DNA of 64,000 nt from Acidobacteriota bacterium (GCA_043718395.1 JAYSVS010000211.1:1166-65165), one strand, 5' to 3'. Shown: positions 32,006-58,677, numbered from the stretch's first letter. A program made the numbers and translations. Notes: generated by a model from the letters alone, not told the origin.

Positions 32006-35000
32006 ATGCCTTTAAAGAAAACCTCGTTTGGACTACATCCTTTTGGAGCTGTCGCGCTGATTGGCACGATGGGAATTGCCTGGACTGCTCGCCTGTTGTT
32101 TGCCCAAGCTCCGGCTGGTGTACCTGCTCCGATGGAGCCGGCATTTCAAAAGGTGATCAAACCGTTTCTCGATCAGCATTGCGCCAAATGCCACAACGCC
32201 GACAACATGACGGCTGGCGTGAGAGTGGATCATCTGGATACTTCGCTCGACGACAAACACATCCGCTTCTGGGAGGGCATCCGGCACCGTGTGAAGGCCG
32301 GGACTATGCCTCCGAAGGGTTTGCCGCAGCCCGGTGTGGCTGAGCGTGATCGAGTAGTAGAGTGGATTGACAAGGCGATTGAAGTGGCGAAGTTGCGTCC
32401 GGCTCCAAAGAACGGAATCGTACGCAGACTTACAGTTTCGCAGTACAAGAATACGCTGCGTGAGCTATTGCACCTGGAAGATGACCTGACCGAGGCGCTG
32501 CCTCCAGATGCGATTTCAAGCGACGGCTTTGTAAACAACAAAGAGACTTTGCAGCTTTCTCCTTTGTTGCTGGAGGCTTATTTTGAAATTGCCGAGGATG
32601 CGCTCAACAGGTCGATCATAGACCCAAAGGTAAAGCCGAAGGTGCAGAATTTCCGCGTCGATCTGGGTAAGTCAATCAACCCGAATCCGATTCCTGACAA
32701 GTTGATTCTGGGGGCGAATAGCAAGTTGCTGGAGAACCAGGATTTCACAGTCACACAGTTGACCCCGCTGAAGCCGTTTGCGTTTGATCCTTATTTGATG
32801 AAGTCGAAGTACCGGTTTATCGAAGGCTATGCAGGGAACGACACGGTACGCGGATGGAAAGAGTACGACAGCATTTACCATTCCGTGTTTGCTTGTATGC
32901 GCGGGACGGGCGGCTATCCCAAGGGGCTCGCATACGGGCTGGTGCCGCAGGGGCTGCTTCTGCGGCCAGCGATTCCGAATGAAGAGATTTTTGAAGCCGA
33001 TGGAACTTATGGACCCAAGGCGAATTTCAAGATTTCACTCAGAGAATTGCCTGATCACGGGCGATTTAGAGTGACTGTGATGGCGGCCCGCTATAACGAC
33101 GGATTGATGCTCGATTCTGAGGTAGCAGTTCAAAAGGCCGGCAGCATTTCGGTTGATCCAAAGGGCAATAGTGAAGTCAATATTCCCAAGGCTGGCATTT
33201 ACCAGGTGGACGTGCATCAGGCCGCAAGGCAGGCACCTTCCACTGTGACGGACACTTCGAGGCTAAAGGATGGGCTGATTGGCTCATGGCCTTTCGATGG
33301 TGCGACGGAGGGTGCAAAAGTGGAAGGGAATGCTCGTTTTGTAGTCTCACCATTCGGAAAGGCGGTGTCCCTTGGAGGGGAATATGAATTTGTAACGATC
33401 CCCCCTCAGGAGGGCCTGAATGTTTCCGGGGACGACTTTACGGTGGCCATGTGGTTGCGCCCCGGACAATTGCGAAGGGCTGGCCTGGCGGGCCGGGGTG
33501 GAAATGAGGGCACGCATGGGTGGTATCTGGACATGCCGGATGGCCGGGGTAGCTTACGTCTGGAGACGACTGGGCCGGATGGTAAGCCCAACGGGGGGAT
33601 GATGTCGCCGCCCGGAGTTTTGCGGCCGAATCTTTGGCAGCATGTGACTGCTGTAGTGAAGCGCGGCAAGAATGAAGCCCGGCTTTATGTGAATGGTTAT
33701 GCAGTAGCGAAAGGGCCGGTTGGCTTGGCTCACCTCGATAACTCGAAGCTGGATTTGCAGTTGGGCCGCGTGCCCGGTACAGCTACTTTCAAGGGTGATC
33801 TGGATGAAGTAAGGCTTTATCGAAGGGCTCTGGACGAAGCCGAGATACAGGCTCTGATTGAACCTGGCCGGCAGTTTGTACGGCCGCCTCCAGAGAAGAA
33901 TCAGGACGTGCGTTTGACGCTCGGTGAGAGGGAGTTTGCCGGGACGCTGGCGCAGCAGGCCTTTGTGTTGGTGCGGCTGGACGCAGGGCCTTTGCCTGTT
34001 CGCGCTGAGATCACGGGGATGGCGGGGCTGGAGAAAGTTGTACTAACGCCGATTGAAGAAGGCCAGGAGCTGGCTCGCAAGTTCAAGACCTTTGAGAAGC
34101 GCACTCCAAGGCTAGGCGTGCATCTTGGCTTGCGCCGCGATTGCGGCAGTACTTTTGCGCCGGTTGGCGCACCGCAAGTGGTGGCGGGGACGAAGTTGAG
34201 CCGTTATGTTTTTGAAGGAGCGATCAGCAATTTTCCAAGCCCGAATGTCGAGAAAGACAATGTGAATTACCTGGCCGGGATTCGTGAAATCGCAGTGCGG
34301 AGTGAGTACACCGATGGCCGTGATATGCCCCGGATGCTGATCAAGTCGGTGGAGTTTGAGGGGCCGTTCTATGAACAGTGGCCGCCGCCTTCTCATCGCA
34401 GTATTTTTTTGGATTCCGAAAAAAAGAGTGATCTGCCAACCTATGCGCGCCAGGTGATTCGCGGGTTCGCGACGCGTGCCTATAGGAGGCCAGTAAGTGC
34501 AGTTGAAGAGGCTTCGCTGATGGCGGTGTATCAGAAGTCGTCTGCGGCGGGTGCGAACTTTCAAGAGAGTGTCAAGGATAGCTTGCAGGTGGTGCTCACC
34601 TCGCCGCAATTTCTCTTCCTGGTAGAGAAGAGTAGCACGCCCAAGCCGGAGGCGATTGATGCCCATGAGCTGGCCTCAAAGCTGTCTTACTTCTTATGGA
34701 ATGGGCCGCCTGACCGTACGACCCTGCGTTTGGCCTCGACTGGTATGTTGGCCAGGCAACTCGATGCCGAAGTAGCACGAATGGTCGCGAGCCCGAGGTT
34801 TGCGCGATTCGCACAAGAATTCACGTCGCAATGGCTGAGTCTCGATAAGTTTAATGTGCTCGAACCAGACCGCAAAAAATTCCCGAATCTGACTCGCGAT
34901 ACACGGGTGCAGTTGCGGCAGGAGCCAGTGCAGTTTGTTCAGCACCTGATGCGGAAGAATTTACCGGTGAAGAACCTGATTCAATCGGATTTCATGATGG

Positions 35001-35641
35001 TCAATGAAGTGGTGGCGAGTTACTACGGCATGCCGGAGAAGAGTGAGAGCGGCTTCCAGTTCTTGGCGATCCCCCACGGCCGCAAAGAGCTTGGCGGGGT
35101 GTTGACGCAGGCTTCGATTCTGGCCGGGCTCTCCGATGGCCGCGAATCAAATCCAGTGAAGCGAGGGGCGTGGCTGGCCCGCCGGATTATTGCTGAGCCG
35201 CCGGCAGACCCTCCACCCAATGTGCCAGCACTGCTGGAGAGCGAGAAGGACTTGACCTTGCGTCAGCGTCTTGAAGCGCACCGCAATCAGCCTGGGTGTT
35301 TTCAATGCCATCAGAAAATTGATCCTTGGGGTGTGGCGTTTGAAGAGTTTGATGCGGGCGGACGTCTGAAAAAGCAGCCTGTGGATGCGCATTCAAAGTT
35401 GCCCGATCAGACGGAAGTATCGGGTGCGAATGATCTGAAGCGCTATCTGGGTGAGGATCGGATTGATCAGGTGGCCTTTAGTGTGTTTAAGCACCTTGCG
35501 ACCTATGCGAACGGTCGCAGCTTGACATACAATGAACTCAACGAGCTGAAGCGCGACGGATTGAAATTGAAGGCCAGTGGCTACCCGATGCAGGACATGA
35601 TCCGTTATATCGTCAACAGCAAGATTTTCCTTGAAAAATGA
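32006..35641 (+). CDS. Giant secreted double-CxxCH protein, DUF1592/DUF1595/DUF1588/DUF1587/DUF1585 (PSCyt3/PSD) type, with a LamG-like insert
   Basis: After an N-terminal hydrophobic segment come [10 protein letters not shown] (CxxCH) ... GTMPPKG. The C-terminal region has [14 protein letters not shown] (second CxxCH). An insert of about 200 aa ends in [21 protein letters not shown], which is typical of Laminin-G_3 / concanavalin-like domains. Confidence 0.85.
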
Positions 35642-35659
35642 TGAGTTTTGGAGAAACCA

Positions 35660-37000
35660 ATGAGTAGTGCTAGTAACATGGATCGCCGCGCATTTCTGAA
35701 TGGCTTGGGCGGTGTTGCGTTGGCCCTGCCTGTGCTGGATGCGATGGGTGCTGAGGTGACCGGACAGGTACCTCGCCGCTTCTGTGCGATCTATACGGCA
35801 AATGGAATGTCGCTGCCCAAGACTGAACATGGCATCGACGATTGGAGCTGGTTCCCGGCAGCCGGGAAGGATTCAGAATTTGTTTTCGGCAAGTCGACCG
35901 AGCCGTTAAGCCCGTTTAGGAAGAATTTGAGCTTTATGGGCGGGATGCACCATCCCAGCGGGCCAAAGGCCGACCCTCATACGTGCTCTGATATGTGGCT
36001 GACGGGCGCTCCGTTGCATAATCCGAAACCGGGCACATACAATACGGCGGGCCTCGACCAGGTGATCGCACTTCATACCAAGCAGTTTTGCCGGCAGCCT
36101 TCTCTGATTCTCTCAATCGATGCCGGCACCGGGTTCTTGTCTCGCACGGGCACGATTTCTTATAGCCTGGAAGGCAGGCCAATTCCGGCCGAGAATAATC
36201 CGCGCCGGATCTTTGACCGCTTGTTCAAGGGTGACCGTTCTTCGGTGAAGTCAGAACATGAAAAGTTGCAACGGCGGATTAAGCTGGTAGATGCGGTGGC
36301 AAGTAGTGCGAAGTCTCTGGACCAGCAGTTGGGTCAGTCTGACCGTGAGCGGATGGATCAGTATCTGACTTCTCTCAATGAAGTGGAATCACGTTTAATT
36401 GCTTCAGAAAAGTGGATCGACATTCCACTAAAAAAGCAGGATTATTCGCATCTGAACCTCGAGGTGACTAACGAGGGCGAGCCATCTGAGTATTACCAGA
36501 ACATGTTCGATCTGATTGCCTTGGCCTTTGATGCTGACATCACACGGTCTGTCGCGTTTATGTTGAACCGCGAAGACGGTATGGGGATCAGCGATACCTT
36601 CCCAATCAAGCTGGGTTTATCCAAGACCCATCACAATCTGTCGCATGCGACAGATAAGGAAGGGCAATTGGGGTTTGCCAGGTACGACCAGTTTTTGAGC
36701 AAGCAGGTGGCGCACTTTCTGGGACGGCTAACGCAATATCAGGACAGGCAAGGAAGCGTCCTCGACAACACGATTGTGATGTTTGGCAGCGGCGCGAGTA
36801 CAACCCACAATTCGCGCAATCTGCCGACTCTGCTGGCGGGTGGATCCAATATGGGCTTAAAGCATGGATCTTACTGGCGTAAGGGCGAGTCCCGGATGTC
36901 GAATATGTACCTCAGCATTCTGCGCTCATTGGCTATTGATCAGGATTCGTTTGCCGATAGCACAGGTACACTGAGCAGTCCGGTCTTCAGCCGCGCCTAG
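35660..37000 (+). CDS. DUF1552-family protein with a twin-arginine signal
   Basis: [30 protein letters not shown] carries the Tat motif [21 protein letters not shown] and LSHATD-type motifs are shared with the paralogue at 44969-46288. GGAG lies 6 nt upstream of the ATG at 35660. The ORF track uses the TTG at 35648. Confidence 0.85.
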
Positions 37001-37008
37001 ACCAAAAG

Positions 37009-37036
37009 AAAAAGCCCGGCGCAATGCCGGGCCTTT
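37009..37036. terminator. Intrinsic-terminator-like hairpin between convergent genes
   Basis: A5 run at 37009-37013, stem GCCCGGC / GCCGGGC at 37014-37020 and 37026-37032 with loop GCAAT, then CTTT. The U-tract is best for the minus-strand PEP-CTERM gene. Confidence 0.6.
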
Positions 37037-37060
37037 CCTAGCCGAACTTAAAGTCAGATC

Positions 37061-37834
37061 TTAAGCCTTCTTACGACGCAGGAAGCCAAGGCCAAGGAGG
37101 CCGGCACCGAGCATAGCGTAAGTTCCTGGCTCAGGAACTACAGTGTTGGGAGGAGTGTACATGAGCTGCTGAATCTTGAAACCGTCGTTCTGCGAGCCAT
37201 AACCTGCGGTTTCGATGCGTGTTCCAAAGATCAGCGTGTTGTAGCCAATATTGTTGCCGAGGCTCACGTTGACCACACCATTATTGTTGGTCATAGTCGC
37301 GCTCGAAACATCGACACGGGCATTGAATCCTGCTGCCGCAAGCTGGGCAGTCGAGAGGCCAGCCAGATTGAAGGCACCATTCGTGTTGCCGAGCCAATAG
37401 CTGACATCATAATCACTGGCGAGGTTGCCGAGGAAAACCTGAAGGTTGGTCACACCGATCTGTGAGGCAGAGGTGCTTGAGAACTGAAACATGACAAAAT
37501 CGCTCTCGTAAGCATTGTCAACCTGGTGCTCAGAAGGGTTGCCACTGGTGCTGCACCCACCCGAACTGGCGAACTCAGCTGCGGTGCATACACCCAGCCC
37601 TGCCGTTCCATAGTCGCGCAGGCGAGCCTGAGCAAAAAGACCCGTCCCGGCTGCCCCGGTGTTCCACGCTGTGACCTTAGCCTTAAAAAGGCCGTCAATC
37701 TTTTCCAGGAAATTGCCGACAGGACCATCACCGATGGCTGCCGCGTCAGTGTAGTTAAAGGTCGCACCTTGTAAAGTGAGCCCGGCCAGAATTAAAGACG
37801 ATAATAGAAATTTTTTCATTTGAAACCCTCCCAA
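37061..37834 (-). CDS. PEP-CTERM sorting-domain secreted protein
   Basis: Signal peptide MKKFLLSSLILAGLTLQG. The C-terminus VPEPGTYAMLGAGLLGLGFLRRKKA has the PEP motif, a TM helix and a basic tail, which is the exosortase substrate signature. Confidence 0.8.
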   Translation of the reverse strand: MGGFQMKKFLLSSLILAGLTLQGATFNYTDAAAIGDGPVGNFLEKIDGLFKAKVTAWNTGAAGTGLFAQARLRDYGTAGLGVCTAAEFASSGGCSTSGNPSEHQVDNAYESDFVMFQFSSTSASQIGVTNLQVFLGNLASDYDVSYWLGNTNGAFNLAGLSTAQLAAAGFNARVDVSSATMTNNNGVVNVSLGNNIGYNTLIFGTRIETAGYGSQNDGFKIQQLMYTPPNTVVPEPGTYAMLGAGLLGLGFLRRKKA

Positions 37835-38159: not shown

Positions 38160-40589
38160 ATGCTAATCCACTGGCTGATTTCGATTGCATTTTGCTGCAG
38201 GTTGTTAGCCCAGCAGCCCGGTGCCATGCACTTCGAATCAAACATTAGACCCGTGCTGGCCACAAAGTGTTTCCCCTGCCATTCTTCAAAGTTGAAGGCC
38301 CCGATGGGTGGCTTGGTGCTGGATACCAAGACCGGGATGGCCGCAGGCGGGGCAAACGGCGTAGTGATCGTTCCGGGCAAGCCTAAGGAGAGTCGATTGC
38401 TCACGGCGCTGCGATTTGACGACCCCCATTTGCAGATGCCGCCGTCTGGGAAATTGCCTGATGCGGTGATTGCCAATTTTGAAGCCTGGATTGCTTCTGG
38501 AGCAGTGGACCCGAGAACGGCCAGCGCGGTGGCTGAGAAGTCATCCGCGCTTAAAGGCATGTCAATCGAGAATGGACGCAAGTGGTGGGCCTTCCAACCA
38601 ATTTCGGAGTTGTCTGCTCCCAAGGTGCTGAATCTTCGCTGGGGCCGCAACAAGATTGATCCATTCGTGCTGGCAAAGCTTGAGGACAAAAAGATATTGC
38701 CTTCGCCGCGCGCTGGCAAGCGCACACTTGTAACGCGAGCCTATATCGATTTACTCGGTTACAAGCCAACCTACCAGGAGGTGCAGAGCTTTGCGGATGA
38801 TGTCGCCGTGGATGCCTGGGAGAAGTTGATCGACAAGTTGCAGGCGATGCCGCAGTATGGCGAGCGCTGGGGCCGCTACTGGATGGATGTGGCGCGATTT
38901 GGAGAAGATAACCCAACTTCTGAAGCTACCAATGGGCCCTATCCTTATGCGTGGCGTTATCGCGATTGGGTGATCGAGGCGATCAACCTGGATCTTCCAT
39001 ATGACCGGTTCGTGACGATGCAACTGGCAGCGGATCAGATGCCAGGTATGAAGCGGGAAGATCTGCGGGCTCTGGGCTACTTGGGTGCGGCTCCGATCTA
39101 CCACAAGGACCAGCGCCTATCGGCTGATGTGATTGGCGGCTTCATGACGGATGACTGGGACGAACGTGTGGATGCAGTGTCGCGCGGTCTGCTTGGGATG
39201 ACAATTGCGTGTGCAAGGTGTCACGACCACAAATTTGATCCGATTCCGACCAAGGACTACTACGGATTGGCGGGCGTGTTTGCCTCAACGATGCGCACCG
39301 AGCAGCCGATGTTTGAGGTGGAGCGCGAAGTTGAGACCCGCTACATGTGGGTGAAGCGGCGTCTGATTGACCTGAGCTATTCAGTAAATGTGCTGACAGG
39401 TGAGCCGTCGACCGTTATCGGTAGTGAGTCGCGCGTGGCGAAGTGGAAGCTTGAGATCGATGCGTTGAAAAAGGAGATGGAGAAGCTGCTTGAAAAGTCT
39501 CCGACCCTGATAGCAAGCCTTGCGAAATATTGGACTCCTCCTGCTTCGCGCACAAATCGTGAGGAACCCGTGAAAGGGCGTGTGCGTCCGTCGTTGACTT
39601 CGACTGAGCCATTTTTCAACACAGTGTTTGACGCCGCGCAGTATGTGGATGGGTCTGATCCGCATTACACTTTCATCAACTATAAAGTTGGTGAGTCGCG
39701 GGACTTGCCCGTGTTACGCAACGGAAATGTGGCGACTCCTGGAGAGATCGTTCCTCGTCATTTTCCATCAGTTCTTTCCAGGGGCGAAAGCAATTTCAAG
39801 AAAGGATCTGGGCGGCTGGAACTGGCCGAACGGATCTTTACCGATGCGGCACCTCTGTCGGCAAGAGTGATTGTGAACCGCGTTTGGGGATGGCATTTTG
39901 GTCGCGCGCTGGTGGGTACGCCAAGTGATTTTGGAGTTCAGGGAGAGACCCCAAGTCATCCCGGATTGCTTACCGATCTTGCTGCCAGGTTTGTTGCTCA
40001 TGGCTGGTCACTGAAGTGGTTGAACCGCGAGATTATGATGTCTGCCGCCTATCAGCAATCGAGCAGACCGCGGTCAGCGCTGATGAAATTGGATCCTGCG
40101 AATGCGCTCTATTGGAGGATGGCTCCGCGCAGGATGGATATCGAAGCATATCGGGATTCGATGTTGCGTGCTTCAGGCCGGCTTGACCCAAAGATGTACG
40201 GGCCGTCAGAGGATGTCGAGTTGCCCGGCAATGTGCGCAGGACTGTGTACGGACGGATCAGCCGTGGGCGGTTGAGTCCGTTGCTTAAGAATTACGATTT
40301 TCCAGACCCGATGCAGAGCAGTGGATGGCGTGACCAGACTACTACTTCGCTTCAACAGCTTTTCGTGTTGAACAGTTCGTTCATTTTTGATTCCGCAGTT
40401 GCGCTTGGCAAAGTGGTCAGTGGGTTACCGGCGGATGGGGACAAGGTGAAAGAATTGTACCGGCGGGTGTTGTCTCGCGATCCTGGTCCCAAAGAACTGG
40501 ATCTGGCTTTCAGCTTTCTCGCAAAGGGCAGTGTTGAGCAATACGCGCAGGTGTTGTTGTCCACCAATGAGGAGATTTTGTGGCCATGA
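38160..40589 (+). CDS. Double-CxxCH protein of PSCyt1 + DUF1549 (PSCyt2) + DUF1553 (PSD1) type
   Basis: MLIHWLISIAFCCRLLAQQ signal, then KCFPCHSSK (CxxCH) ... LQMPPSGKL. The central CARCHDHKFDPI is the second CxxCH. The protein is collinear with the paralogue at 55600-58677 but about 200 aa shorter. The ATG at 38160 was verified. Confidence 0.85.
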   Translation: MLIHWLISIAFCCRLLAQQPGAMHFESNIRPVLATKCFPCHSSKLKAPMGGLVLDTKTGMAAGGANGVVIVPGKPKESRLLTALRFDDPHLQMPPSGKLPDAVIANFEAWIASGAVDPRTASAVAEKSSALKGMSIENGRKWWAFQPISELSAPKVLNLRWGRNKIDPFVLAKLEDKKILPSPRAGKRTLVTRAYIDLLGYKPTYQEVQSFADDVAVDAWEKLIDKLQAMPQYGERWGRYWMDVARFGEDNPTSEATNGPYPYAWRYRDWVIEAINLDLPYDRFVTMQLAADQMPGMKREDLRALGYLGAAPIYHKDQRLSADVIGGFMTDDWDERVDAVSRGLLGMTIACARCHDHKFDPIPTKDYYGLAGVFASTMRTEQPMFEVEREVETRYMWVKRRLIDLSYSVNVLTGEPSTVIGSESRVAKWKLEIDALKKEMEKLLEKSPTLIASLAKYWTPPASRTNREEPVKGRVRPSLTSTEPFFNTVFDAAQYVDGSDPHYTFINYKVGESRDLPVLRNGNVATPGEIVPRHFPSVLSRGESNFKKGSGRLELAERIFTDAAPLSARVIVNRVWGWHFGRALVGTPSDFGVQGETPSHPGLLTDLAARFVAHGWSLKWLNREIMMSAAYQQSSRPRSALMKLDPANALYWRMAPRRMDIEAYRDSMLRASGRLDPKMYGPSEDVELPGNVRRTVYGRISRGRLSPLLKNYDFPDPMQSSGWRDQTTTSLQQLFVLNSSFIFDSAVALGKVVSGLPADGDKVKELYRRVLSRDPGPKELDLAFSFLAKGSVEQYAQVLLSTNEEILWP

Positions 40590-41947: not shown

Positions 41948-41979
41948 CTGCGGGTATAGACTGAGAGGGATCTATTTCT

Positions 41980-49300: not shown

Positions 49301-49495
49301 TTGCTCTTCCGCGAGCGGTATAAGTTAAACCTGTTTGTCGAAGGATTCAATGTGTTCAACATAGCCAACCTTGGGGGCATCAGCAACAGCCTCAATAATC
49401 CGGCATCGTTCGGTATTCCCACAAGCCGGGCGGGCCAGGTCTTTGGGTCGGGCGGACCACGAGCCTTCCAACTCGGCGGGCGCTTCTCCTTCTAG
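46343..49495 (+). CDS. TonB-dependent receptor-like outer-membrane protein with an N-terminal carboxypeptidase-regulatory-like domain
   Basis: Signal MIRVFVFLLATWTITLGQA, then IAGTVSDDSGAVVVGAAITVTNVETG...GRYEVRTSMAGF. The product is 1050 aa and ends in ...GGRFSF. Confidence 0.85.
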   Translation: MIRVFVFLLATWTITLGQAPIGTIAGTVSDDSGAVVVGAAITVTNVETGLKRELKSTAEGQYSVAALPAGRYEVRTSMAGFRQTLREASVVVGSTTTVDMKLQVGAVSEVVTVDAATSQLAFDSHKIDGVIGRTQIESLPLNGRSFLQLAFLEPGVGVGTQSLAQYNAQFSVSVLGSSSGKTALTVDGGNVRNALEGGTAQNFSQEVVEEFQISSANFDLSTGIAASGAINIVSRSGGNAFHGGGYFFFRDNNMSAYPALRRNPFAPDPFFARRQSGFLVSGPIKKDKLFFFFNMENNNQDAVVTVQPDSPYFATLAQNASNPYDARQISAKFDYRISQQHNMFARYSHDGNKGFGPRSGSPLPSNWLVNRNWADQSIMGLTSTFRSTLVNDFRFAYQYWNNRNLHPTSNECPGCLGLGLPEMSVVATNVRFGNTANAPQGRDMRRYNIVNNMTWQKGSHRMRFGGSYENSPFTGYWAFGDPAAGQVWGPDIMVANRIPLAAFGLPNQFLTSADVLKLPLAVFAIGVGDPSQPPPYQKDKAGNNRRYHFFWQDTFRVNKKLTLNYGLAWQFESTLVNGDLSKPALLAPIMESLEPTKPTYTNWTPSFGFAYSPFKNNKTVIRGGGGFYYDTTELSQRLGERAAIGPVGNGRQQFGGQSIPNPVAGIVNPIPGVLPNVNVGTPLDFRTLPTGFRLSDLLNILPQVRAQAEASTANPNPNDLSVRNINISKQGTDIYPHRYGPGYSRHLTLGVQRELRKDLVINADFVYRHGFREDLGSLDYNRFFRVQGPVIPRCVGTQAADPKANCSTGSIGVRTPAGRSVYRALLVKVDKRFSKRYQFMASYALAAAQGMNGITNLDNWFENWGPVGGRHALNVSGIVDLPFKVQASFISSIGTRGPYRPQLGSVDLDGDGLDTAFLPGWNVPDRKPTRERLEKSVAAWNAAYPDLANGQRPRTSRGQTIPKLSLPSDYSFGENFSSQDIRVTKTLLFRERYKLNLFVEGFNVFNIANLGGISNSLNNPASFGIPTSRAGQVFGSGGPRAFQLGGRFSF

Positions 49496-51573: not shown

Positions 51574-51672
51574 TTTATAGATTGATTTCCGTTAAAGGGC
51601 TTATCGAGCGCTGGGTGCCAATGTGATGACAAATTTTTGGCGATTATTGCTTAGCTCGAAACACTACACTAT

Positions 51673-54204
51673 GTGAAGTACGTTCTTTTACTTGGTTTTG
51701 TAAGCATCTTAACGGCGCAGCAGCCCTGGAAGATGCGCACAATCGCTGGAGGTACCGAAGCGGGCGATGGGGGCAGAGCGGCTGATGCTTCGATCCGTTT
51801 TTTGCAGGGAGTTGCGTCGGATTCTCTTGGGAATCTGTATGTCAGCGACGCCGATGATCATCGTGTGCGGCGGGTGGATTCCGCTGGGGTGATCACGACG
51901 CTTGCCGGGGATGGTCTGGCGGGCTTTAGCGGCGACGGCGGACCTGCGGCAAGGGCGCGGGTAAATACCCCTTATGGACTAACCCTGACCAGTGCTGGCG
52001 AACTGATCTTTGCGGATTTGGGGAATGCCCGGGTGCGGCGGATCTTGCGCAACGGCCAGATCGAGACTCTAGTAGGCGGCGGCAGCCGTGAATTGCCTGC
52101 GGCAGGTCAGTTTATGGCCCCGAAAGACGTGAAGCTGATTGCCCCCAGAAACGTCCTGGCTGTACCTAGCGGCTCGATTTACATCTCGGACTTTGGAGCG
52201 AACCGCGTGCTTGAATTGCGTTCGGATGGCACGCTGACCAGTTTGCCGCTGGCGGCGCTCGAATTGAAATCCCCAGCCGGCCTCAGCATTGATGCAAATG
52301 GCAACGTTCTGGTAGCTGACAGCGGCAATGCGAGGATCAGGAGGATTCGCCGTGACGGGCGTGCGGATATTGTGGTGGCCAGCTCAAATGAAATTCCCTT
52401 GGAGAGGCCTGTAGGGCTCGCCAGCCGCCTGGACGGCAGTTTGCTGATTGCTGACACACGCGGCGACTTTCTGTGGCAACTGGACCCTCAAGGGAGGGCG
52501 ACGGTGGTGCCGCCTGGAGGCCGGGATGTAGCCGTCGACTCCTTCGGCAATATCATTACTGCCGGAGCGAGCTGGTTGCGCCGGGTCAATCCAGCAGGGT
52601 TAATCGAGATATTGATCGGCAACAACCATGCCACCTTTCGTGGTGATGGCGGCTCTGCTCTGGCGGCCCGGTTGAACCGGCCTATGGGCGTGGTGGCCGA
52701 TTCCAAGGGCAATCTCTATTTCACCGACACCAGCAACCATCGTGTGCGCTGCGTGCGTACCGATGGCACGATTGCCACAGTGGCCGGTCTGGGCGAACAA
52801 GGCTTTCGGGGCGACGGCGGTCTGGCGGCTCAAGCCTACTTGAATAGCCCTGCCTATCTCGCTGTGGATGCTTTTGACAATTTGTATGTCTCTGATACGG
52901 GCAACCACCGGGTAAGAGTGTTTACTCCTGGCGGAGTGATTCAGACTGTTGCTGGGACGGGCCGCAACGAATTCTCAATTGATGGGGGGTTGGCGTCACA
53001 GACGAGCCTGTCCGGGCCGGCAGGACTTGCTCTGGATCGCGCCGGCAATCTTTATGTGGCAGAACGCGGCCAGCACCGGGTGCGGCGCTTCGCCCCCGGT
53101 GGACGGATCGTAACTGTAGCAGGCACTGCGATTCGAGGCAACAGCGGCGATGGTCAGGATGCAATCGCTGCGGCGCTGAATGGGCCCGGTGCTATTGCTG
53201 TCGATGCGCAGAGCAATCTCTATATTGCGGACACAGGAAATCAATCGATCCGTGTCATTGAGACAGTGTCTGGCAAGATCCGGACTCTGTTGCGGGATCT
53301 GCGGAGCCCTGAAGGGCTGGTGGTAGCCGCCAACGGCACACTGTACTTTAGTGAGGCGCTGCGGCACCGTGTGCAACAACTGAGTGTCAGTGGCGAGGTC
53401 TTGCTGGTGGCGGGGCGCACCAATGAAAATGGCTTCAATGCAGATGCGGGTGATGCGGCAGCGCTGACCTTGAACGAGCCGGCTGGCCTGGCCCTGATGC
53501 CGGATGGAGGGTTGGTGGTAGCAGATCGATTAAATGATCGTATACGCCGGATTGAGCCCCCCGTTGAAGTCATCGTCAGTAACTCGCAGAGCGGACGCGT
53601 TGTACATGCAGCTACTTTTGTTGAAGGTGCGGTGGCACCTGGGCAGCTACTATCGCTACTGACCGGAGCTTTGAGCCGCCCCGAACTGGCAGAAGTGACC
53701 GTGGACGGAATGGCCGCCCCCATCTCTTATGCAGGTAAGTCGCAGGTGAATTTTCAAATGCCCTATGCAATTGCCGGCCGGCCCCAAGTGAGTTTGGAAT
53801 TGCGCGTCGGCGGAGCGCTGGTGTACCGCCTGCCGCTGGATGTCGCAGGGGCGGCACCGGGCTTCTTTGAAGCGAATGGACTTGTGGTTGCGGTGCGGCC
53901 AGATGGCTCTTTGAATGGCGACGGAGCGCCGGCGAGGGCGGGAGATGTGCTGAAGCTCTATGGCACTGGGGAAGGCCTATTGAGGGAGGCGGGTGGGTTG
54001 CAGGTGCCGTTCTTGCCTGCCAGTGTCGAGGTTGGCGGCGTGGCAGCAGAATTACTCTATGCGGGGCCAGCCCCTGGGTATTCGGGGCTCCTGCAAGTGA
54101 ACCTGCGTGTGCCAGACAGCGTGCGATTGAGAGGACGGGTGACGGTGACGCTGAAGGTGGGAGCCTTTCAGAATCCGAAATCACAAGTGATTGTGCTTCA
54201 GTAA
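51673..54204 (+). CDS. NHL-repeat beta-propeller protein with a Solibacter-type C-terminal domain
   Basis: GTG start and signal MKYVLLLGFVSILTAQ. There are more than 10 repeats of the P.G(L/V)A.D..GN(L/I)Y(V/I)(A/S)D..N.R(V/I)RR pattern. The C-terminal ...YAGPAPGYSGLLQVNLRVPD... resembles the uncharacterised Acidobacterial C-terminal domain (TIGR03437-like). Confidence 0.8.
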   Translation: MKYVLLLGFVSILTAQQPWKMRTIAGGTEAGDGGRAADASIRFLQGVASDSLGNLYVSDADDHRVRRVDSAGVITTLAGDGLAGFSGDGGPAARARVNTPYGLTLTSAGELIFADLGNARVRRILRNGQIETLVGGGSRELPAAGQFMAPKDVKLIAPRNVLAVPSGSIYISDFGANRVLELRSDGTLTSLPLAALELKSPAGLSIDANGNVLVADSGNARIRRIRRDGRADIVVASSNEIPLERPVGLASRLDGSLLIADTRGDFLWQLDPQGRATVVPPGGRDVAVDSFGNIITAGASWLRRVNPAGLIEILIGNNHATFRGDGGSALAARLNRPMGVVADSKGNLYFTDTSNHRVRCVRTDGTIATVAGLGEQGFRGDGGLAAQAYLNSPAYLAVDAFDNLYVSDTGNHRVRVFTPGGVIQTVAGTGRNEFSIDGGLASQTSLSGPAGLALDRAGNLYVAERGQHRVRRFAPGGRIVTVAGTAIRGNSGDGQDAIAAALNGPGAIAVDAQSNLYIADTGNQSIRVIETVSGKIRTLLRDLRSPEGLVVAANGTLYFSEALRHRVQQLSVSGEVLLVAGRTNENGFNADAGDAAALTLNEPAGLALMPDGGLVVADRLNDRIRRIEPPVEVIVSNSQSGRVVHAATFVEGAVAPGQLLSLLTGALSRPELAEVTVDGMAAPISYAGKSQVNFQMPYAIAGRPQVSLELRVGGALVYRLPLDVAGAAPGFFEANGLVVAVRPDGSLNGDGAPARAGDVLKLYGTGEGLLREAGGLQVPFLPASVEVGGVAAELLYAGPAPGYSGLLQVNLRVPDSVRLRGRVTVTLKVGAFQNPKSQVIVLQ

Positions 54205-55596
54205 CTAAGCCAGCGCTTGTTTCACGAGATTGCCGTGGACGTCGGTCAGACGGAAGTGGCGGCCCTGGAACTTGTAAGTCAGCCTGGTGTGGTCGATGCC
54301 CAGGCAGTGCAGTAATGTGGCTTGGATGTCGTGGACATGTACAGGGTCTTTGACGATGTTGTAGCTATAATCGTCGGTTTCACCAATGATGGTTCCCGGC
54401 TTTACGCCCCCACCGGCCATCCACATCGAGAAGCAACGAGGGTGATGGTCGCGCCCATAGTTGGTATCGGTAAGGCGGCCCTGACAATAAACTGTGCGAC
54501 CGAATTCGCCACCCCAGACCACAAGTGTGTCCTTTAGCAGCCCGCGCTGCTTGAGATCAAGCACAAGGGCGGCAGAAGCCTGGTCTGTGGCCTTGGCCTG
54601 AAGTTGGATATCCCGTGGAAGATCGTTGTGCTGATCCCAGCCGCGGTTGTAGAGTTGCACGAAGCGGACGCCCTTTTCGACAAGGCGCCTGGCCAGCAGG
54701 CACTGTTGGGCGAAGCTGCCCGGCCGCCGGGAATCTTCACCGTAAAGATCGAAGGTTGCTTCGGTTTCTTTCGACAAATCCATCAGGTCTGGCACGGAGC
54801 TCTGCATCTTGAAAGCCATCTCGTACTGGGCGATGCGGGTGTCCACCTCGGGGTCGCCGCTCGAATCCCCACGCATCTGATTCATCTTCGAGCTGAGATC
54901 CAGGATGCGGCGGCGGGTGTCCTTGGACATGCCCTCGGGGTCATTGAGAAAGAGAACTGGATCTGCGCCGGCGCGGAACTTGACGCCCTGGTAGCTTGAA
55001 GGTAAAAAGCCGGCAGACCACAGCCGGCTGAAGAGGGGCTGGTCGGTATTGATGGCGCTCTTCTGACTGATCATGACGACGAAGCCGGGCAGGTTCTTGT
55101 TCTCGCTGCCAAGACCGTAGCTGACCCAGGATCCGATGCAGGGCCGGCCGGGCTGCTGAAAGCCGGTCTGGATGAACGTGATCGCCGGGTCGTGGTTAAT
55201 TGCGTCGGTGTTGACGCTGCGGATGAGACAGATGTCATCGGCGATCTTGTGGTGCCAGGGGATGATGTCGCTCATCTCCATGCCCGACTGGCCGCGCTTG
55301 GCGAAGTTGAAGAGCGAACTGGCGACGGGCAGTGTGGACTGGCCGCTCGTCATGCCAGTGATTCGTTGGCCCATGCGGATCGTTCCGGGTAGATCTTGGC
55401 CTTGATATTTCTTAAGGCCGGGCTTGGGGTCGAAGAGGTCCAACTGCGAGGGCCCGCCTGACATGTGCAGATAGATGACGCTCTTGGCCTTGGCCGGAAA
55501 GTGCGGTGCCGCGCTGTGATTCTCGTTTGCCATCGCCGCAAAGGCGGTAGCTCCAAAGCCGGATAGGAAGTGGCGGCGGGATTGAAACTCTTGCAT
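54205..55596 (-). CDS. DUF1501-family protein with a twin-arginine signal
   Basis: MQEFQSRRHFLSGFGATAFAAMA carries the classic S-R-R-x-F-L motif. CLLARRLVEKGVRFV, VVWGGEFGRT and GRDHHPRCFSMWMAGGG are present. It starts 3 nt after the upstream stop. Confidence 0.85.
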   Translation of the reverse strand: MQEFQSRRHFLSGFGATAFAAMANENHSAAPHFPAKAKSVIYLHMSGGPSQLDLFDPKPGLKKYQGQDLPGTIRMGQRITGMTSGQSTLPVASSLFNFAKRGQSGMEMSDIIPWHHKIADDICLIRSVNTDAINHDPAITFIQTGFQQPGRPCIGSWVSYGLGSENKNLPGFVVMISQKSAINTDQPLFSRLWSAGFLPSSYQGVKFRAGADPVLFLNDPEGMSKDTRRRILDLSSKMNQMRGDSSGDPEVDTRIAQYEMAFKMQSSVPDLMDLSKETEATFDLYGEDSRRPGSFAQQCLLARRLVEKGVRFVQLYNRGWDQHNDLPRDIQLQAKATDQASAALVLDLKQRGLLKDTLVVWGGEFGRTVYCQGRLTDTNYGRDHHPRCFSMWMAGGGVKPGTIIGETDDYSYNIVKDPVHVHDIQATLLHCLGIDHTRLTYKFQGRHFRLTDVHGNLVKQALA

Positions 55597-55599
55597 CTC

Positions 55600-58500
55600 T
55601 TATTCCTTGGTGAGCACTTCGTCGAGGTTGAGGATGGCGCTGGCAATGCTCATCCAGGTGGCGAGCTCGATTGGGTCTTTGGTTTCGACCTTCGATTCGC
55701 CAGCCTGGATTAGTTTGCGGGCAGCATCGGGGTCGGCCTTGTATTCAGCGAGTTGCGCCTCCGTCGTTGAGGTCAGCAGCTTCAACTCTTGAAGGTTAGG
55801 GTACCGCGCAGTGGCAAGGCGGAACATGTAGCGGATGCGCTTGGTTGAGTCGCTGCCGGCCTCTCTCAGGCTGCGCTCGGCGAGCTTGCGGGCGGCTTCA
55901 AGGTAAGTGACGTCGTTCCAGAGCGCAAGAGCCTGAAGCGGCGTGTTGGTGGTCGCGCGGCGGGCCAGGCATTTCTCTCGATCTGGCGCATCGAAGATCG
56001 CGAGACTGGCTGGCGGCAACGTGCGCTTCCAAAAGCTGTACATGCCACGGCGGTAGAGGTCCTTGCCATGCGATTGCACGTAACGCTGCGCGGAGAACTG
56101 CGCACCGTAGGCGACTTCTTCCCAGAGCCCTGGCGGCTGGTAGGGCAGCACACTGCGGCCACCGATTTCGTCATTGAGCAGGCCGCTGACGGCGAGAGCA
56201 TTGTCGCGAACGAGTTCGGCTTGAACGCGGAAACGAGACATGCGGGCGAGCAGCCGGTTCTCGGGGTCACGCTCCTTGAGGTCTGGCGAGACGTTGGAGC
56301 TCTGCCGGTAGACCGCGCTCATCACGATTTGCTTCTGCAGCTTCTTCACGTCCCAATTGGAGTCGGCAAATGAGGTGGCGAGGTAGTCGAGTAATTCGGC
56401 GTGACTGGGCATTTCGCCCTGACTGCCGAAGTCCTCTACTGTCTTGACAAGGCCGTTACCAAAGTACATCGACCAGAAGCGGTTGACGGCGACACGAGAG
56501 GTGAGCGGGTGATCTTTGGCGGTAAGCCACTGGGCGAGTCCAAGGCGATTGCGGGGCAGGCTTGCAGGCATCGGAGGCAGAAAGCCAGGAGTTGCGGCAT
56601 CGACCTTTTCAGCCTTCTGATCGTATTGACCCCGATTCAGGATGAAGGAATCGCGCGGCTTGTCGAGTTCTTTCATCACCATCGAGGACGGGATCTGTTC
56701 GTCGAGCTCTTTCTTTTCGGCCTTGAGCTGATTGAGACGAGCAAAGAGTTTTTGATTGTCCTCAGCCGCGTCGTACTTCAGGTAGAAATCACGCAGTGTC
56801 GCGGATTGCGTCTTGTTGCGCTTGATACCGCTGTGGAAGAGGAGGTACCGGACGGGCTCGACCACGGCAAGCTGATGGGCTTCCAGTTGCGTGATCGGAC
56901 GGTTGTAGATGCGCAGGTCGTCGAAGGAACCGATCATTTTGGCGAACAGGAATGGTGCGTCGCTGGTGAAGTTGATCTCGCGTTTGGCACCGGACGTGAT
57001 CAGCTCTACTGGCTGGCCGTTGACCAGCAATTCAAAATCGCCCTTGCCCTTGTGGTTGAGAGTGAAGTGCGTGAAATCGCTGTAAGGGAAAGGACTCTTT
57101 GAACTGTAATTGACGGCTTCGCCATTAGAGGCTGTCAATTGGACAAGCAGGTGAGCGCCGCGCTGGCGGTCACCTATAGAAAAGACTTCGTCGTTGCCGA
57201 TCTCAATGCCGGCCTTGTCCTTTTTGGACAGGATGGTCATGGGTTCGAGTTTGTTTCCTCCGCGGAACCAGAAGGCGAGACTAAAGGGTTTGTCTTCGCT
57301 AAAAGTCTCGGGGGCCGGAACTTCAATTCGAGCCGAAGAGTCGAGCAGGGCGGCCTGCCCGATCGGTCCATCATTGGCCGTGGGCGGGATTCCCAGAAAA
57401 CGACCGTGCCGGTAGGTGCCGCTTGATTCGTTGAAATTGCCTTCCATCTCGTAATGAGCAAGCAGGCCTTGCCGTGAGGGGGTAGCGATACGAGCTAGTT
57501 TGGTCTTCTCCCACTCCTCCATGAGTTTTGGGATCCTGGCGTCTTCAAGCTGCTTCTCTCGCGCGGCAATCGCCTGGGTCATTTCTTTTTCGAGAGTGTC
57601 TTGGGTGATGGTTGGAAGCTTCAGGAAAGGCGCGGCGTTGCCCTTCTGGCCGTCCAGACCTTTCTCCTCGATATTATTGAAAAAGGCGTAGAGGCGGTAG
57701 AAGTCTTTCTGCTTGATCGGGTCGTACTTGTGGTCGTGGCAACGGGCGCAACCGACGGTTAGGCCAAGCCAGGTGGTGCTGGTGGCTTCCACTCGATCAA
57801 TCACATACTCGGTTTGATATTCTTCCGGGATCGCGCCGCCCTCATAGTTGATGACGTGATTACGATTAAATCCGCTGGCTACAATCTGTTCGCGGGTGGC
57901 GTTGGGCAGCATGTCCCCGGCGAGCTGCCAGACGGTGAACTGGTCGTAAGGCATGTTGCGGTTGAAGGCCCCAATCAGCCAGTCGCGCCATGGCCACATA
58001 TCGCGGTGCGAGTCAATGTGATAGCCGTGGGTGTCGGCATAGCGGGCGAGGTCAAGCCAGTGCAGGGCGAGTTTCTCCCCGAAGCGGGGGCTAGCGAGCA
58101 GGCGGTCGACCTGCTTTTCATAGGCGCTGGCGGACTTGTCGGCGAGGTATTGGTCGAGTTCCTGGGGCGTGGGAGGCAAGCCATTGAGATCAAGGCTGAG
58201 CCGGCGCAGCAGCGTTGGCTTGTCTGCCTCGGGCGACGGCTTTAGCTTTTCTTGTTCGAGACGGGCCAAAACGAATCGATCAATGTCTGTGCGAGGCCAC
58301 TTTGTCAGTTGCACAGCAGGGATCGCGGGGGCTTTGGGCGCGACAAAGCTCCAGTGTTCTTGCCAGTTTGCACCTTCGTCGACCCAGCGTTTGAGCGTAG
58401 AGATTTGAGCTTCGGCCAGTTGGACTTTGGCGTGAGGAGGCGGCATCTTGCGGGCAGCACGGGTTTCGGTAACTCGTGCCGCGATCTGACTGGCCTTGGC

Positions 58501-58677
58501 CACCAGGCCCTCTTTGGTATCCAGCCGCAACTTTGCCATTCGGGTGGCTTCGTCCGGTCCGTGGCATTGAAAGCAGGCGTCAGAGAGGATGGGCCTCACT
58601 TCGCGAAGAAAATCTACCGGCTTGGGAGCGGCTGACACTGTCGCGGCGAAGAGTAAAAAGAGGCAGTAGTAAAACAT
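55600..58677 (-). CDS. Double-CxxCH protein of PSCyt1 + DUF1549 + LamG-like insert + DUF1553 type
   Basis: Signal MFYYCLFLLFAATVSA, then ACFQCHGPD (CxxCH) ... KMPPPH, then GCARCHDHKYDPI (second CxxCH). The insert spans residues ~405-605 and ends in FDDLRIYNRPITQLEAHQL (LamG-like). Confidence 0.85.
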   Translation of the reverse strand: MFYYCLFLLFAATVSAAPKPVDFLREVRPILSDACFQCHGPDEATRMAKLRLDTKEGLVAKASQIAARVTETRAARKMPPPHAKVQLAEAQISTLKRWVDEGANWQEHWSFVAPKAPAIPAVQLTKWPRTDIDRFVLARLEQEKLKPSPEADKPTLLRRLSLDLNGLPPTPQELDQYLADKSASAYEKQVDRLLASPRFGEKLALHWLDLARYADTHGYHIDSHRDMWPWRDWLIGAFNRNMPYDQFTVWQLAGDMLPNATREQIVASGFNRNHVINYEGGAIPEEYQTEYVIDRVEATSTTWLGLTVGCARCHDHKYDPIKQKDFYRLYAFFNNIEEKGLDGQKGNAAPFLKLPTITQDTLEKEMTQAIAAREKQLEDARIPKLMEEWEKTKLARIATPSRQGLLAHYEMEGNFNESSGTYRHGRFLGIPPTANDGPIGQAALLDSSARIEVPAPETFSEDKPFSLAFWFRGGNKLEPMTILSKKDKAGIEIGNDEVFSIGDRQRGAHLLVQLTASNGEAVNYSSKSPFPYSDFTHFTLNHKGKGDFELLVNGQPVELITSGAKREINFTSDAPFLFAKMIGSFDDLRIYNRPITQLEAHQLAVVEPVRYLLFHSGIKRNKTQSATLRDFYLKYDAAEDNQKLFARLNQLKAEKKELDEQIPSSMVMKELDKPRDSFILNRGQYDQKAEKVDAATPGFLPPMPASLPRNRLGLAQWLTAKDHPLTSRVAVNRFWSMYFGNGLVKTVEDFGSQGEMPSHAELLDYLATSFADSNWDVKKLQKQIVMSAVYRQSSNVSPDLKERDPENRLLARMSRFRVQAELVRDNALAVSGLLNDEIGGRSVLPYQPPGLWEEVAYGAQFSAQRYVQSHGKDLYRRGMYSFWKRTLPPASLAIFDAPDREKCLARRATTNTPLQALALWNDVTYLEAARKLAERSLREAGSDSTKRIRYMFRLATARYPNLQELKLLTSTTEAQLAEYKADPDAARKLIQAGESKVETKDPIELATWMSIASAILNLDEVLTKE

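Follow-up and report, generated by a model that had tools for sequence, protein, structure and literature searches.

Four copies of two published gene-pair modules, each a secreted putative haem protein with a Tat-exported sulfatase-like partner, in 27 kb of a Bryobacter-like acidobacterial genome

The PSCyt and PSD domains of the Group II module reportedly go back to work by Studholme in 2004. Group II modules have been described in Verrucomicrobium spinosum and in freshwater Verrucomicrobia (PMC3542564; PMC5615132), and DUF1501, the family of their small partner, was noted in a few Acidobacteria (Kamneva 2012, PMC3542564). For the Group III module, in which the neighbouring gene encodes a DUF1552 protein, it has been stated that 'PSCyt3 exclusively pairs with PSD4, often with PSD2, PSD3, PSD5' (He 2017, PMC5615132 Text S1). 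Both pairings are thus in print (Kamneva 2012, PMC3542564; He 2017, PMC5615132 Text S1), so that the novelty attached to them in a first-pass annotation of the present DNA was overstated; no assigned function for the modules was found in the literature to 2026 or in NCBIfam. A Tat-signal DUF1501 protein beside a larger partner annotated without function, in a predicted operon, is also found in the DUF1800 + DUF1501 pairs of Proteobacteria (PMC5122149), whereas the larger protein of the pairs described here is of the PSCyt2/PSD1 cytochrome type, and DUF1800 gave no Pfam cross-match with PSD1 or PSCyt2.

The stretch of DNA analysed here (the window, 64,000 nucleotides) contains four copies of these two modules, in each of which a gene for a secreted, putative haem protein of the PSCyt/PSD type adjoins a gene for a Tat-exported, sulfatase-like putative metalloprotein. 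The host is a Bryobacter-like acidobacterium and not a member of the PVC group, but an acidobacterial host of Group II is not new, because DUF1501 had already been noted by Kamneva et al. in a few Acidobacteria. In Pfam searches, two pairs have the composition PSCyt1–PSCyt2–PSD1 plus DUF1501 (pairs B and D, Group II) and two have PSD3/5/4–PSCyt3–PSD2 plus DUF1552 (pairs A and C, Group III). The explanation that we favour, to which as a whole we assign a probability of roughly 0.6, is that the modules are independent but mutually related, that they came together within 27 kb recently and in this lineage only, in a genome dense in such pairs, and that each pair would be a redox-linked enzyme of the kind proposed below.

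In the Group II pairs, the large protein B1 (38160–40589, plus strand, 809 aa) is built of PSCyt1 (CFPCH37...M93PP), PSCyt2 (CARCHDHKFDP, residues 351–361) and PSD1, and D1 (55600–58677, minus strand, 1025 aa) of PSCyt1 (CFQCH35...M78PP), PSCyt2 (CARCHDHKYDP, residues 310–320), a Laminin_G_3 insert (residues 447–599) and PSD1. PSCyt2 (PF07583), PSD1 (PF07587) and PSCyt1 (PF07635) score 225.6, 248.8 and 51 bits in B1 and 303.4, 331.5 and 30 bits in D1, against Pfam gathering cut-offs of 29.8, 28.5 and 22. The adjacent same-strand DUF1501 (PF07394) partners, B2 (40586–41947, plus strand, 453 aa, 453 bits) and D2 (54205–55596, minus strand, 463 aa, 536 bits), have the twin-arginine motifs SRRKWI and SRRHFL, respectively. 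Pairs B and D thereby share with described Group II modules the domain string, the adjacent DUF1501 gene, the twin-arginine leader and, in D1, the occasional Laminin_G_3 insert, and no functional difference from those modules was found. The location of D1 and D2 on the minus strand is a point on which the first-pass annotation was silent.

In the Group III pairs, A1 (32006–35641, plus strand, 1211 aa) has a hydrophobic, signal-peptide-like N terminus followed by PSCyt1 (CAKCH59...M101PP), PSD3, a Laminin_G_3 insert (residues 459–615), PSD5, PSD4, PSCyt3 (CFQCH1098) and PSD2, and C1 (41980–44997, plus strand, 1005 aa) consists of a cytochrome domain (CLGCH40...M83PP), PSD3, PSD5, PSD4, PSCyt3 (CAGCH873) and PSD2. 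All five core families, PSCyt3 (PF07627), PSD4 (PF07631) and PSD2/3/5, exceed their cut-offs in both proteins. The adjacent same-strand DUF1552/HXXSHH (PF07586) partners are A2 (35660–37000, plus strand, 446 aa, Tat motif DRRAFL, 224 bits) and C2 (44969–46288, plus strand, 439 aa, Tat motif ARRAVL, 270 bits). Compared with the published Group III module (He 2017), which has the same domain combination and adjacent DUF1552 gene, A1 and C1 additionally possess an N-terminal PSCyt1-type cytochrome domain, and A1 also the LamG insert. This domain is over the Pfam threshold in A1; in C1, the sole exception to the family assignments made earlier, PSCyt1 falls below threshold, is replaced by a weak Cytochrome_CBB3 match and is recognisable only by its motif and by profile alignment.

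Open reading frames and motifs bore out the earlier description of four large secreted proteins with exactly two CxxCH motifs each (CAKCH and CFQCH in A1, CFPCH and CARCH in B1, CLGCH and CAGCH in C1, CFQCH and CARCH in D1), each with a downstream same-strand gene for a partner that carries the twin-arginine motif reported for it. The proteins are large, although at 809–1211 aa the epithet 'giant' was generous, and both pair types are indeed present twice, but the supposed duplicates are ancient paralogues with 27–45% identity.

The junctions within the pairs, all four of which proved correct when checked base by base, are an ATGA overlap of the B1 stop and B2 start (40586–40589), an 18-nt gap between A1 and A2 that contains GGAGA 6 nt 5′ of the A2 ATG, a 29-nt overlap of C1 and C2 (44969–44997) and a 3-nt gap between D1 and D2 (55597–55599); they suggest translational coupling. 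DUF1552 is directly preceded upstream by a PSCyt3-type gene in 76 of 77 informative loci among 80 loci of C2 orthologues, and no cross-pairing between module types occurs among the loci surveyed. The 0.96 Mb of flanking DNA contains 13 extra small-partner genes (about 1 pair per 74 kb), two of them at locus ends and one an orphan fragment, and all that could be assessed have a cognate large partner. Orthologues of the D pair and of the B pair are found in otherwise differing neighbourhoods. All 31 DUF1501 sequences compared have the two arginines of the Tat motif, and in 83 DUF1552 sequences their conservation is 90% or more. It is the gene pair that is conserved as a unit, and its earlier description as a two-component unit agrees with the coupled junctions and the cognate pairing.

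The window has 48 stop-to-stop open reading frames of 200 aa or more, and only A1, B1, C1 and D1 among them contain CxxCH motifs, of which composition predicts 0.0005–0.0016 per protein. Both motifs are invariant in 34 Group II sequences; among C1 orthologues and A1 the second is present in 73/73 and the first in 67/68. The N-terminal CxxCH...MPP pattern (C, C, H, MPP) is invariant across Group II and Group III, and the PSCyt1 profile matches solved c-type cytochromes, namely FoxE (5mab, E = 1.4e-5), hydrazine synthase alpha and cytochrome c6 (1e-3), with both CxxCH and the axial-Met 'MP' aligned in the matches to FoxE, c6, c551 and CcoP. The N-terminal domain accordingly has the sequence characteristics of class I c-type cytochromes (CxxCH, distal Met, homology to solved cytochromes). 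This match, in all four large proteins, is new as judged from sequence profiles, and the haem binding proposed for the domain at first pass is likely. Each large protein also has a hydrophobic N terminus that resembles a Sec signal when read by eye.

The small partners belong to the sulfatase/alkaline-phosphatase superfamily. The AF2 model of D2 has the alkaline-phosphatase-superfamily fold, and the top 50 Foldseek matches in the PDB are all members of that superfamily (LtaS, S1 sulfatases, sulfamidase; E from 1.5e-5), although the models of D2 and B1 are mediocre (pLDDT 65.8 and 60.5). In hhalign, DUF1501 aligns with local S1 sulfatases (95.6%, E 1.2e-8, 326 columns), collinearly over about 330 residues. 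The aligned part includes the ...P...TG segment that follows the nucleophile, the His of the active site and the strand bearing the D-H/N motif; H135 of D2 coincides with the cysteine of CSPSR and P137 with the proline, and the TG residues match. DUF1501 aligns in turn with DUF1552 over its full length (98.3%, E 1.1e-14, 374 columns), the three conserved His residues coinciding, and the direct match of DUF1552 to sulfatases is weak (24%). The sulfatase fold attributed to the partners is thus directly supported for DUF1501 and, for DUF1552, follows through homology to DUF1501. By these alignments the two families are homologous to each other and DUF1501 to S1 sulfatases, both relationships being new.

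Also new, on the same alignments, is that a conserved His replaces the catalytic formylglycine of sulfatases in DUF1501 and DUF1552. This His is invariant in DUF1552 and, with the exception of one degenerate fragment, in DUF1501; H135 of D2 and H107 of A2 occupy or adjoin the sulfatase Cys position. Three His are common to both families (D2 H135/H323/H384, corresponding to A2 H107/H325/H383); H323, E364 and H384 of D2 are invariant, the diverse DUF1501 set being small (19 sequences, all from Acidobacteriota), and A2 has the invariant residues H107, H325, H329 and H383. The three would cluster spatially, given their alignment to active-site positions of sulfatases. The sulfatase D-H/N pair is E-F in DUF1501 and G-S in DUF1552, and the partners further differ from S1 sulfatases in their Tat leaders and obligatory cytochrome neighbour. 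Since the conserved His stands in place of the catalytic Cys/Ser, the partners are not formylglycine sulfatases: C/S-x-P-x-R is absent at the aligned position from A2, B2, C2 and D2. The window's own S1 sulfatase (20581–21969), which is of the formylglycine type, has CSPSR.

SorAB sulfite dehydrogenase and FccAB flavocytochrome c are periplasmic dehydrogenases in which Tat exports the catalytic subunit and Sec a c-type cytochrome subunit. The pairs described here follow the same genetic and export logic, in that the two genes adjoin and one product has a twin-arginine leader, the other a Sec leader with CxxCH, but the catalytic subunits of SorAB and FccAB contain molybdenum or flavin in unrelated folds, whereas the candidate here has a sulfatase fold without a known redox cofactor; the resemblance concerns a possible mode of working, not family membership. 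Our best guess is that the two proteins of a pair are the subunits of a redox-linked metalloenzyme in the periplasm. The large and small proteins would form a periplasmic heterodimer, in which the Tat-exported subunit would perform the chemistry at a His-ligated metal centre located at the former sulfatase active site. The cytochrome subunit would position the substrate by means of variable inserts such as LamG and may pass electrons between the respiratory chain and the metal centre; because we know of no redox enzyme in the alkaline-phosphatase superfamily, haem electron transfer to the partner is proposed purely by analogy with SorAB and FccAB. The paralogues would have different substrates, probably glycan-derived or other organic compounds that are imported.

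To our knowledge, every characterised member of the alkaline-phosphatase superfamily is a hydrolase, transferase or mutase, and the fold and homology of the partners place them there. They could therefore be plain hydrolases or transferases that use a nucleophile other than formylglycine on esters of sulfate, phosphate or the like; the cytochrome subunit would then bind the substrate or have a regulatory part, such as redox or O2 sensing, instead of conducting electrons to the active site. Tat export would be no obstacle, as PhoD and PhoX are Tat-exported non-redox metallophosphatases, and in the alignment D53 of D2 falls on the first of the metal-binding Asp residues of sulfatases and E364 on the Asp of their D-H/N motif, but neither residue is conserved in DUF1552. 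The nucleophile is changed to His in both families and their shared core is three His, which resembles a metal site more than a hydrolytic nucleophile, and two invariant haem motifs in every large protein, across thousands of members, would be a high price for a function in structure or sensing alone. Even with sulfatases and esterases recurring near such pairs (in the loci surveyed here and in PMC5615132), we consider this alternative possible but rather doubtful, and retain the redox-linked metalloenzyme as the working proposal.

The first-pass annotation had further proposed that the four pairs, together with a TonB-dependent receptor, two metalloproteases, an NHL propeller and a PEP-CTERM protein, form one coordinated envelope machine capturing or processing an extracellular substrate. 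All components carry export signals and lie within 27 kb, and four pairs in that distance exceed the Poisson expectation from local density (P about 0.006 per pair), but at about 1 pair per 74 kb some 0.1–0.2 such clusters, each counted once, are expected by chance per 7-Mb genome. The neighbourhood-conservation check suggested with the proposal was run and found multi-component synteny only in close relatives. The closest, Bryobacter sp. Bin_54_2 (94–96% identity), still has B pair, C pair, barrel ... M10, NHL, D pair in that order, but two unrelated genes are inserted between M10 and the barrel, and at the place syntenic with the A pair, immediately next to the PEP-CTERM gene, there is no A-pair orthologue but a 334-aa open reading frame that is ROK-kinase-like by eye. 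Partial synteny is also seen in a fragment with 93% identity, the barrel adjoins C2 only in relatives with at least 93% identity, and the D pair is kept with NHL and M10 in relatives at 86% identity. In contrast, the C pair adjoins neither the B pair nor the barrel, M10 or NHL in any of the C2-orthologue loci with at most 88% identity (survey of 80 loci); D orthologues at 89% and 77% and a B orthologue at 80% have unrelated neighbours; and even the most frequent neighbour family, barrels, occurs in only 14/80 loci. The A pair is moreover delimited by a convergent gene and by a strong hairpin: a palindromic, GC-rich element with a 14-bp stem (37007–37039), located between the convergent A2 and PEP-CTERM genes, is likely a bidirectional terminator ending the A-pair transcription unit. 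A single machine is thus improbable, and the packing of four pairs so close together is particular to this Bryobacter-like genome, as held in the favoured account of independent modules.

Of the neighbouring genes themselves, the NHL propeller (51673–54204, plus strand) and the PEP-CTERM protein (37061–37834, minus strand) were confirmed. The metalloproteases held up in part: Peptidase_M10 (49492–51573, minus strand) was recovered, but the second candidate (58734–60860, minus strand) has an HEIAH motif and an N terminus that is hydrophobic and signal-peptide-like by eye, and matched no Pfam or NCBIfam family. The putative TonB-dependent receptor (46343–49495, plus strand) is a receptor-like outer-membrane barrel with CarboxypepD_reg and OMP_b-brl_4 domains but without a Plug or TonB_dep_Rec match at E ≤ 1e-3. 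Because it starts 54 nt 3′ of C2 with no terminator-like site between, the barrel may be co-transcribed with B1-B2-C1-C2; these genes, all on one strand with gaps of 32–54 nt or less and no terminator-like site, may form one operon, and for that reason some local functional coupling is possible. Across loci, the neighbours are carbon-degradation genes, including esterases, sulfatases, PQQ dehydrogenases and GFO/IDH/MocA proteins.

That the CxxCH motifs are metal- or disulfide-forming cysteine pairs without haem, and the large proteins not cytochromes, is very hard to credit: the second-motif domains (CARCHDHKFDP in Group II, CxxCHxxxD in Group III) have no detectable relative among solved cytochromes and the AF2 model of B1 is of low confidence around both motifs, but the N-terminal profile aligns CxxCH and axial Met with those of solved cytochromes, the CxxCH His is as invariant as its cysteines, and in A1, B1 and D1 four of the six cysteines fall in CxxCH motifs. 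The core specific to each family of large proteins contains the second, invariant CxxCH; in B1 this core is predicted, in the same low-confidence model, to be mostly α-helical.

The first-pass annotation had described four large secreted proteins with exactly two CxxCH motifs each, and the ORF map and translations bear this out. A1 (32006–35641; CAKCH and CFQCH), B1 (38160–40589; CFPCH and CARCH) and C1 (41980–44997; CLGCH and CAGCH) are encoded on the plus strand, and D1 (55600–58677; CFQCH and CARCH) on the minus strand. No CxxCH occurs outside these four among window ORFs of at least 200 aa, the chance expectation from composition being approximately 0.001 motifs per protein. Downstream of each large gene, in the same orientation, is a gene of roughly 450 codons whose product has an N-terminal twin-arginine motif (A2, B2, C2 and D2); the junctions are an 18-nt gap (A1/A2), an ATGA overlap at 40586–40589 (B1/B2), a 29-nt overlap (C1/C2) and a 3-nt gap (D1/D2). 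This layout is as originally described, with the correction that the D pair lies on the minus strand. A GGAGA ribosome-binding site is located inside the gap ahead of A2, and a strong palindromic hairpin at 37007–37039 closes the A pair. Nothing resembling a terminator separates B1, B2, C1, C2 and the adjoining barrel gene in the window, and co-transcription of the B pair, the C pair and the barrel is possible.

All eight pair proteins were assigned by Pfam to the families named earlier, far above threshold. The B and D pairs (Group II) combine a PSCyt1–PSCyt2–PSD1 protein with a DUF1501 partner, and the A and C pairs (Group III) a PSD3–PSD5–PSD4–PSCyt3–PSD2 protein with a DUF1552 (HXXSHH) partner. 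Paralogue identities are 35% (A1/C1), 27% (A2/C2), 32% (B1/D1) and 45% (B2/D2); the paralogues are thus old, which rules out recent tandem duplication as the origin of the cluster. The architecture, implied at first to be new, had already been published: DUF1501 genes with twin-arginine leaders adjoin PSCyt1/PSCyt2/PSD1 genes, some with Laminin_G_3 inserts (Kamneva et al. 2012, PMC3542564), the Group III pairing with DUF1552 is likewise in print (He et al. 2017, PMC5615132), and the four window pairs are new members of a known arrangement. A multi-omics study (PMC6004670) named a CBM2-bearing DUF1592 protein of Cellvibrio among its community's lignocellulose-degrading proteins. Full-text literature searches to 2026 and NCBIfam release 20 gave no functional assignment for the pair families. 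DUF1552 comprises 7,896 cluster representatives at 50% identity (E ≤ 1e-3), and redundant-database searches returned at least 8,000 candidates each. Few protein families lacking an assigned function are larger, and such modules account for a considerable part of the genome in abundant heterotrophs of soil and water.

The N-terminal domain of the large proteins, previously proposed to bind haem, is probably a c-type cytochrome. Its profile matches solved c-type cytochromes (FoxE, 5mab, E = 1.4e-5; further matches to hydrazine synthase alpha and cytochromes c6, c551 and CcoP), with both the haem-attachment motif and a Met-Pro aligned, and an invariant MPP follows the N-terminal CxxCH by 40–55 residues in all four proteins. 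The second CxxCH is invariant as CARCHDHK(F/Y)DP in Group II (34/34 sequences) and is kept in 73/73 Group III sequences. Outside the cytochrome domain no homology between Group II and Group III large proteins was detectable, and just a short CxxCH..(F/I)D motif aligns. Sequence searches of solved structures returned no relatives of the cores; a poor AF2 model of B1 (pLDDT 60.5) had no PDB match below E 0.9 in Foldseek. Laminin_G_3 inserts, present in A1 and D1 and absent from B1 and C1 (Pfam), are positioned between the conserved N- and C-terminal parts and look like variable substrate-recognition cassettes.

The sulfatase fold proposed for the twin-arginine partners is supported by three comparisons. 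The best 50 Foldseek matches of the D2 model (AF2; pLDDT 65.8, pTM 0.76) are exclusively alkaline-phosphatase-superfamily structures, among them LtaS, S1 sulfatases, sulfamidase and phosphonate monoester hydrolase (E from 1.5e-5, TM 0.3–0.36). A diverse DUF1501 profile aligned by hhalign with sulfatases of the same loci (probability 95.6%, E 1.2e-8, 326 columns); the reference from within the window was an S1 sulfatase with a CSPSR formylglycine motif (20581–21969, minus strand), encoded 10 kb upstream of the cluster. DUF1501 also aligned over its whole length with DUF1552, represented by 83 diverse sequences (98.3%, E 1.1e-14), which makes the two partner families homologous. Significance was reached only once diverse sequences were added, shallow profiles having given 4.9%. 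When PDB sequences were searched with either family by single sequence or shallow profile, nothing significant emerged, with sulfatases only at E 0.16–1. By these alignments, DUF1501 and DUF1552 are one sulfatase-derived family.

The cysteine of the sulfatase CSPSR motif aligns with H135 of D2 (H107 of A2), its proline with P137 and the next TG with T144–G145. D2 H323 and A2 H325 match a conserved histidine of the sulfatase alignment, which we take to be the active-site histidine, and D2 H384 and A2 H383 adjoin a conserved lysine, presumably the one that binds sulfate. All three histidines are invariant in DUF1501 and DUF1552 sequences, one degenerate fragment excepted, and make up the conserved core common to both families, which the alignments place at the old active site. 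C/S-x-P-x-R is absent at the aligned position from A2, B2, C2 and D2, and the partners are sulfatase descendants rather than formylglycine sulfatases. T83 of DUF1501, considered as an NPP-like nucleophile, was dropped, as divergent paralogues do not conserve it. An orphan DUF1501 ORF of reduced length (L072, 1794–2936, minus strand), which has Arg for the otherwise invariant H135 and no adjoining PSCyt2 gene, is probably a decaying copy. The modest addition made here is to unite DUF1501 and DUF1552 in a single sulfatase-derived family, with histidine replacing formylglycine. The shared three-histidine core and the lost formylglycine provide specific residues and a hypothesis that can be tested on any one pair.

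Each pair may form a periplasmic heterodimer, in which the Tat-exported subunit would bind a metal through the conserved histidines and do the chemistry, hemes would link this subunit to the respiratory chain, and the substrate would be what sets the paralogues apart. What the analysis shows is two types of export signal, tightly coupled genes in strict cognate pairing, a cytochrome c domain, a sulfatase-fold partner whose conserved site is rich in histidine, and variable LamG inserts. The genetic logic of the pairs is like that of the SorAB and FccAB periplasmic dehydrogenases. The alkaline-phosphatase superfamily is not known to contain a redox enzyme, and for this reason the redox part of the mechanism is given a probability of only about 0.35. 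That the partner is purely hydrolytic and the cytochrome no electron conduit is a somewhat less likely alternative. More doubtful again is a specific version in which the formylglycine/Ca site of DUF1501 and DUF1552 was rebuilt as a three-histidine Cu/Fe redox centre exchanging electrons with the di-haem partner, so that each pair would oxidise glycan-derived substrates in a reaction linked to O2 or respiration; the analogy would be an LPMO and the cytochrome that donates electrons to it, with a scaffold unrelated to theirs. If true, it would explain why these families have so many paralogues in aerobic Planctomycetes, Verrucomicrobia and Bryobacterales, and also their inverse relation to glycoside-hydrolase density that has been reported (PMC5615132). 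The comparison narrows the question of what the modules do and offers, as a hypothesis, a metal centre served by a cytochrome.

The four pairs had also been viewed, together with a TonB-dependent receptor, two metalloproteases, an NHL propeller and a PEP-CTERM protein, as one coordinated envelope machinery. Synteny was assessed at 80 genome loci with C2 orthologues (71–94% identity), nearly all from Bryobacterales and other Acidobacteriota, which were searched with the window proteins and family HMMs. At 76 of the 77 loci with sufficient upstream DNA, the gene immediately preceding DUF1552 is of PSCyt3 type, confirming the two-gene pair as a real unit. L015 (JANLPT010000160.1, 1–10000), where the C2 orthologue (85% identity) has no such gene in front, is the sole case among loci with 10 kb of upstream DNA and could reflect a rearrangement, masked sequence or misassembly. 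The window's closest relatives are metagenome-assembled genomes of Bryobacteraceae, and proteins on JALHNH010000018.1 of the nearest, Bryobacter sp. Bin_54_2 (L005), are 96% (D2) and 94% (C2) identical. Among the 80 loci, only Bin_54_2 has the B pair, barrel, M10 protease and NHL gene beside the C pair; the barrel also adjoins the C pair in one 93% fragment, and none of the four lies next to it in loci at or below 88% identity. Bin_54_2 itself differs from the window: two unrelated genes lie between protease and barrel, a plug-bearing TonB-dependent receptor takes the place of a 708-aa HEIAH protein, and directly upstream of the PEP-CTERM gene is a 334-aa ORF, ROK-kinase-like by eye, with no A2 orthologue. 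Different genes surround the D-pair orthologues of 89% and 77% identity, those at 86% keep NHL and M10 and nothing else, and the B-pair orthologue of a 6-Mb genome sits among esterases, adjoining another Group II pair. The coordinated super-cluster is therefore not upheld; the functional unit is the pair, and the four pairs came together locally and recently and do not constitute a conserved system. C pairs 75–79% identical to Bryobacterales ones also occur on short MAG contigs labelled Bordetella, Competibacteraceae and Acidimicrobiia (L020, L047, L078), for which mis-binning is more likely than true occurrence in those taxa.

Flanking DNA totalling 0.96 Mb contains 13 extra small-partner genes, approximately one per 74 kb, including two at locus ends and one orphan fragment. 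Every assessable one has its cognate large partner, with no cross-pairing. At this density, the Poisson probability that any one pair has at least three others within 27 kb is approximately 0.006; clustering of four is unusual, yet expected in a fraction of such genomes.

The neighbours themselves required some revision. The supposed TonB-dependent receptor at 46343–49495 is a CarboxypepD_reg and OMP_b-brl_4 barrel with no detectable plug. It is one of three such barrels in the 64 kb; the other two (539–4030 and 6082–9552) match TonB_dep_Rec_b-barrel, and this C2-adjoining one does not. Outer-membrane barrels form the largest family among the 383 ORFs neighbouring the C pairs, yet are present at just 14 of the 80 loci. 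The second putative metalloprotease, the 708-aa protein (58734–60860, minus strand), has a signal-peptide-like hydrophobic N terminus and owes that name to a HEIAH motif at residue 288, since it matches neither Pfam nor NCBIfam. For the proteins scanned, NCBIfam and a relaxed Pfam search (E ≤ 10) added no family or name. Adjoining the D pair are plus-strand genes for a cytoplasmic GFO/IDH/MocA oxidoreductase (61057–62085, no signal peptide) and a GHMP kinase (62066–63010), followed by a cyclophilin (62989–63570); minus-strand ORFs at 61027–61788 and 61894–62688 were rejected as genes, as neither matches a family and the plus strand carries the true genes. A GFO/IDH/MocA gene is likewise found close to D-pair orthologues in several relatives (L003–L006), the other neighbours differing. 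Divergently oriented to the A pair, and separated from it by approximately 1.4 kb in which the only ORFs are small and match no family, is a gene (28376–30610, minus strand) for a 744-aa regulator; an AAA_16/NACHT-like (STAND-type) ATPase forms its N-terminal part, and an OmpR-type winged-helix DNA-binding domain lies at its extreme C terminus. Genes found repeatedly near pairs encode esterases, sulfatases, PQQ dehydrogenases and a GH5-like protein, and the gene context points loosely to carbon-polymer breakdown. Other periplasmic redox enzymes are found near C-pair orthologues, namely a PQQ-dependent dehydrogenase–cytochrome c fusion (L014, 1878–4118, and five other loci) and a cytochrome with a YNCE-type beta-propeller (L080, 5299–6765, and three others), each encoded by an adjoining gene.
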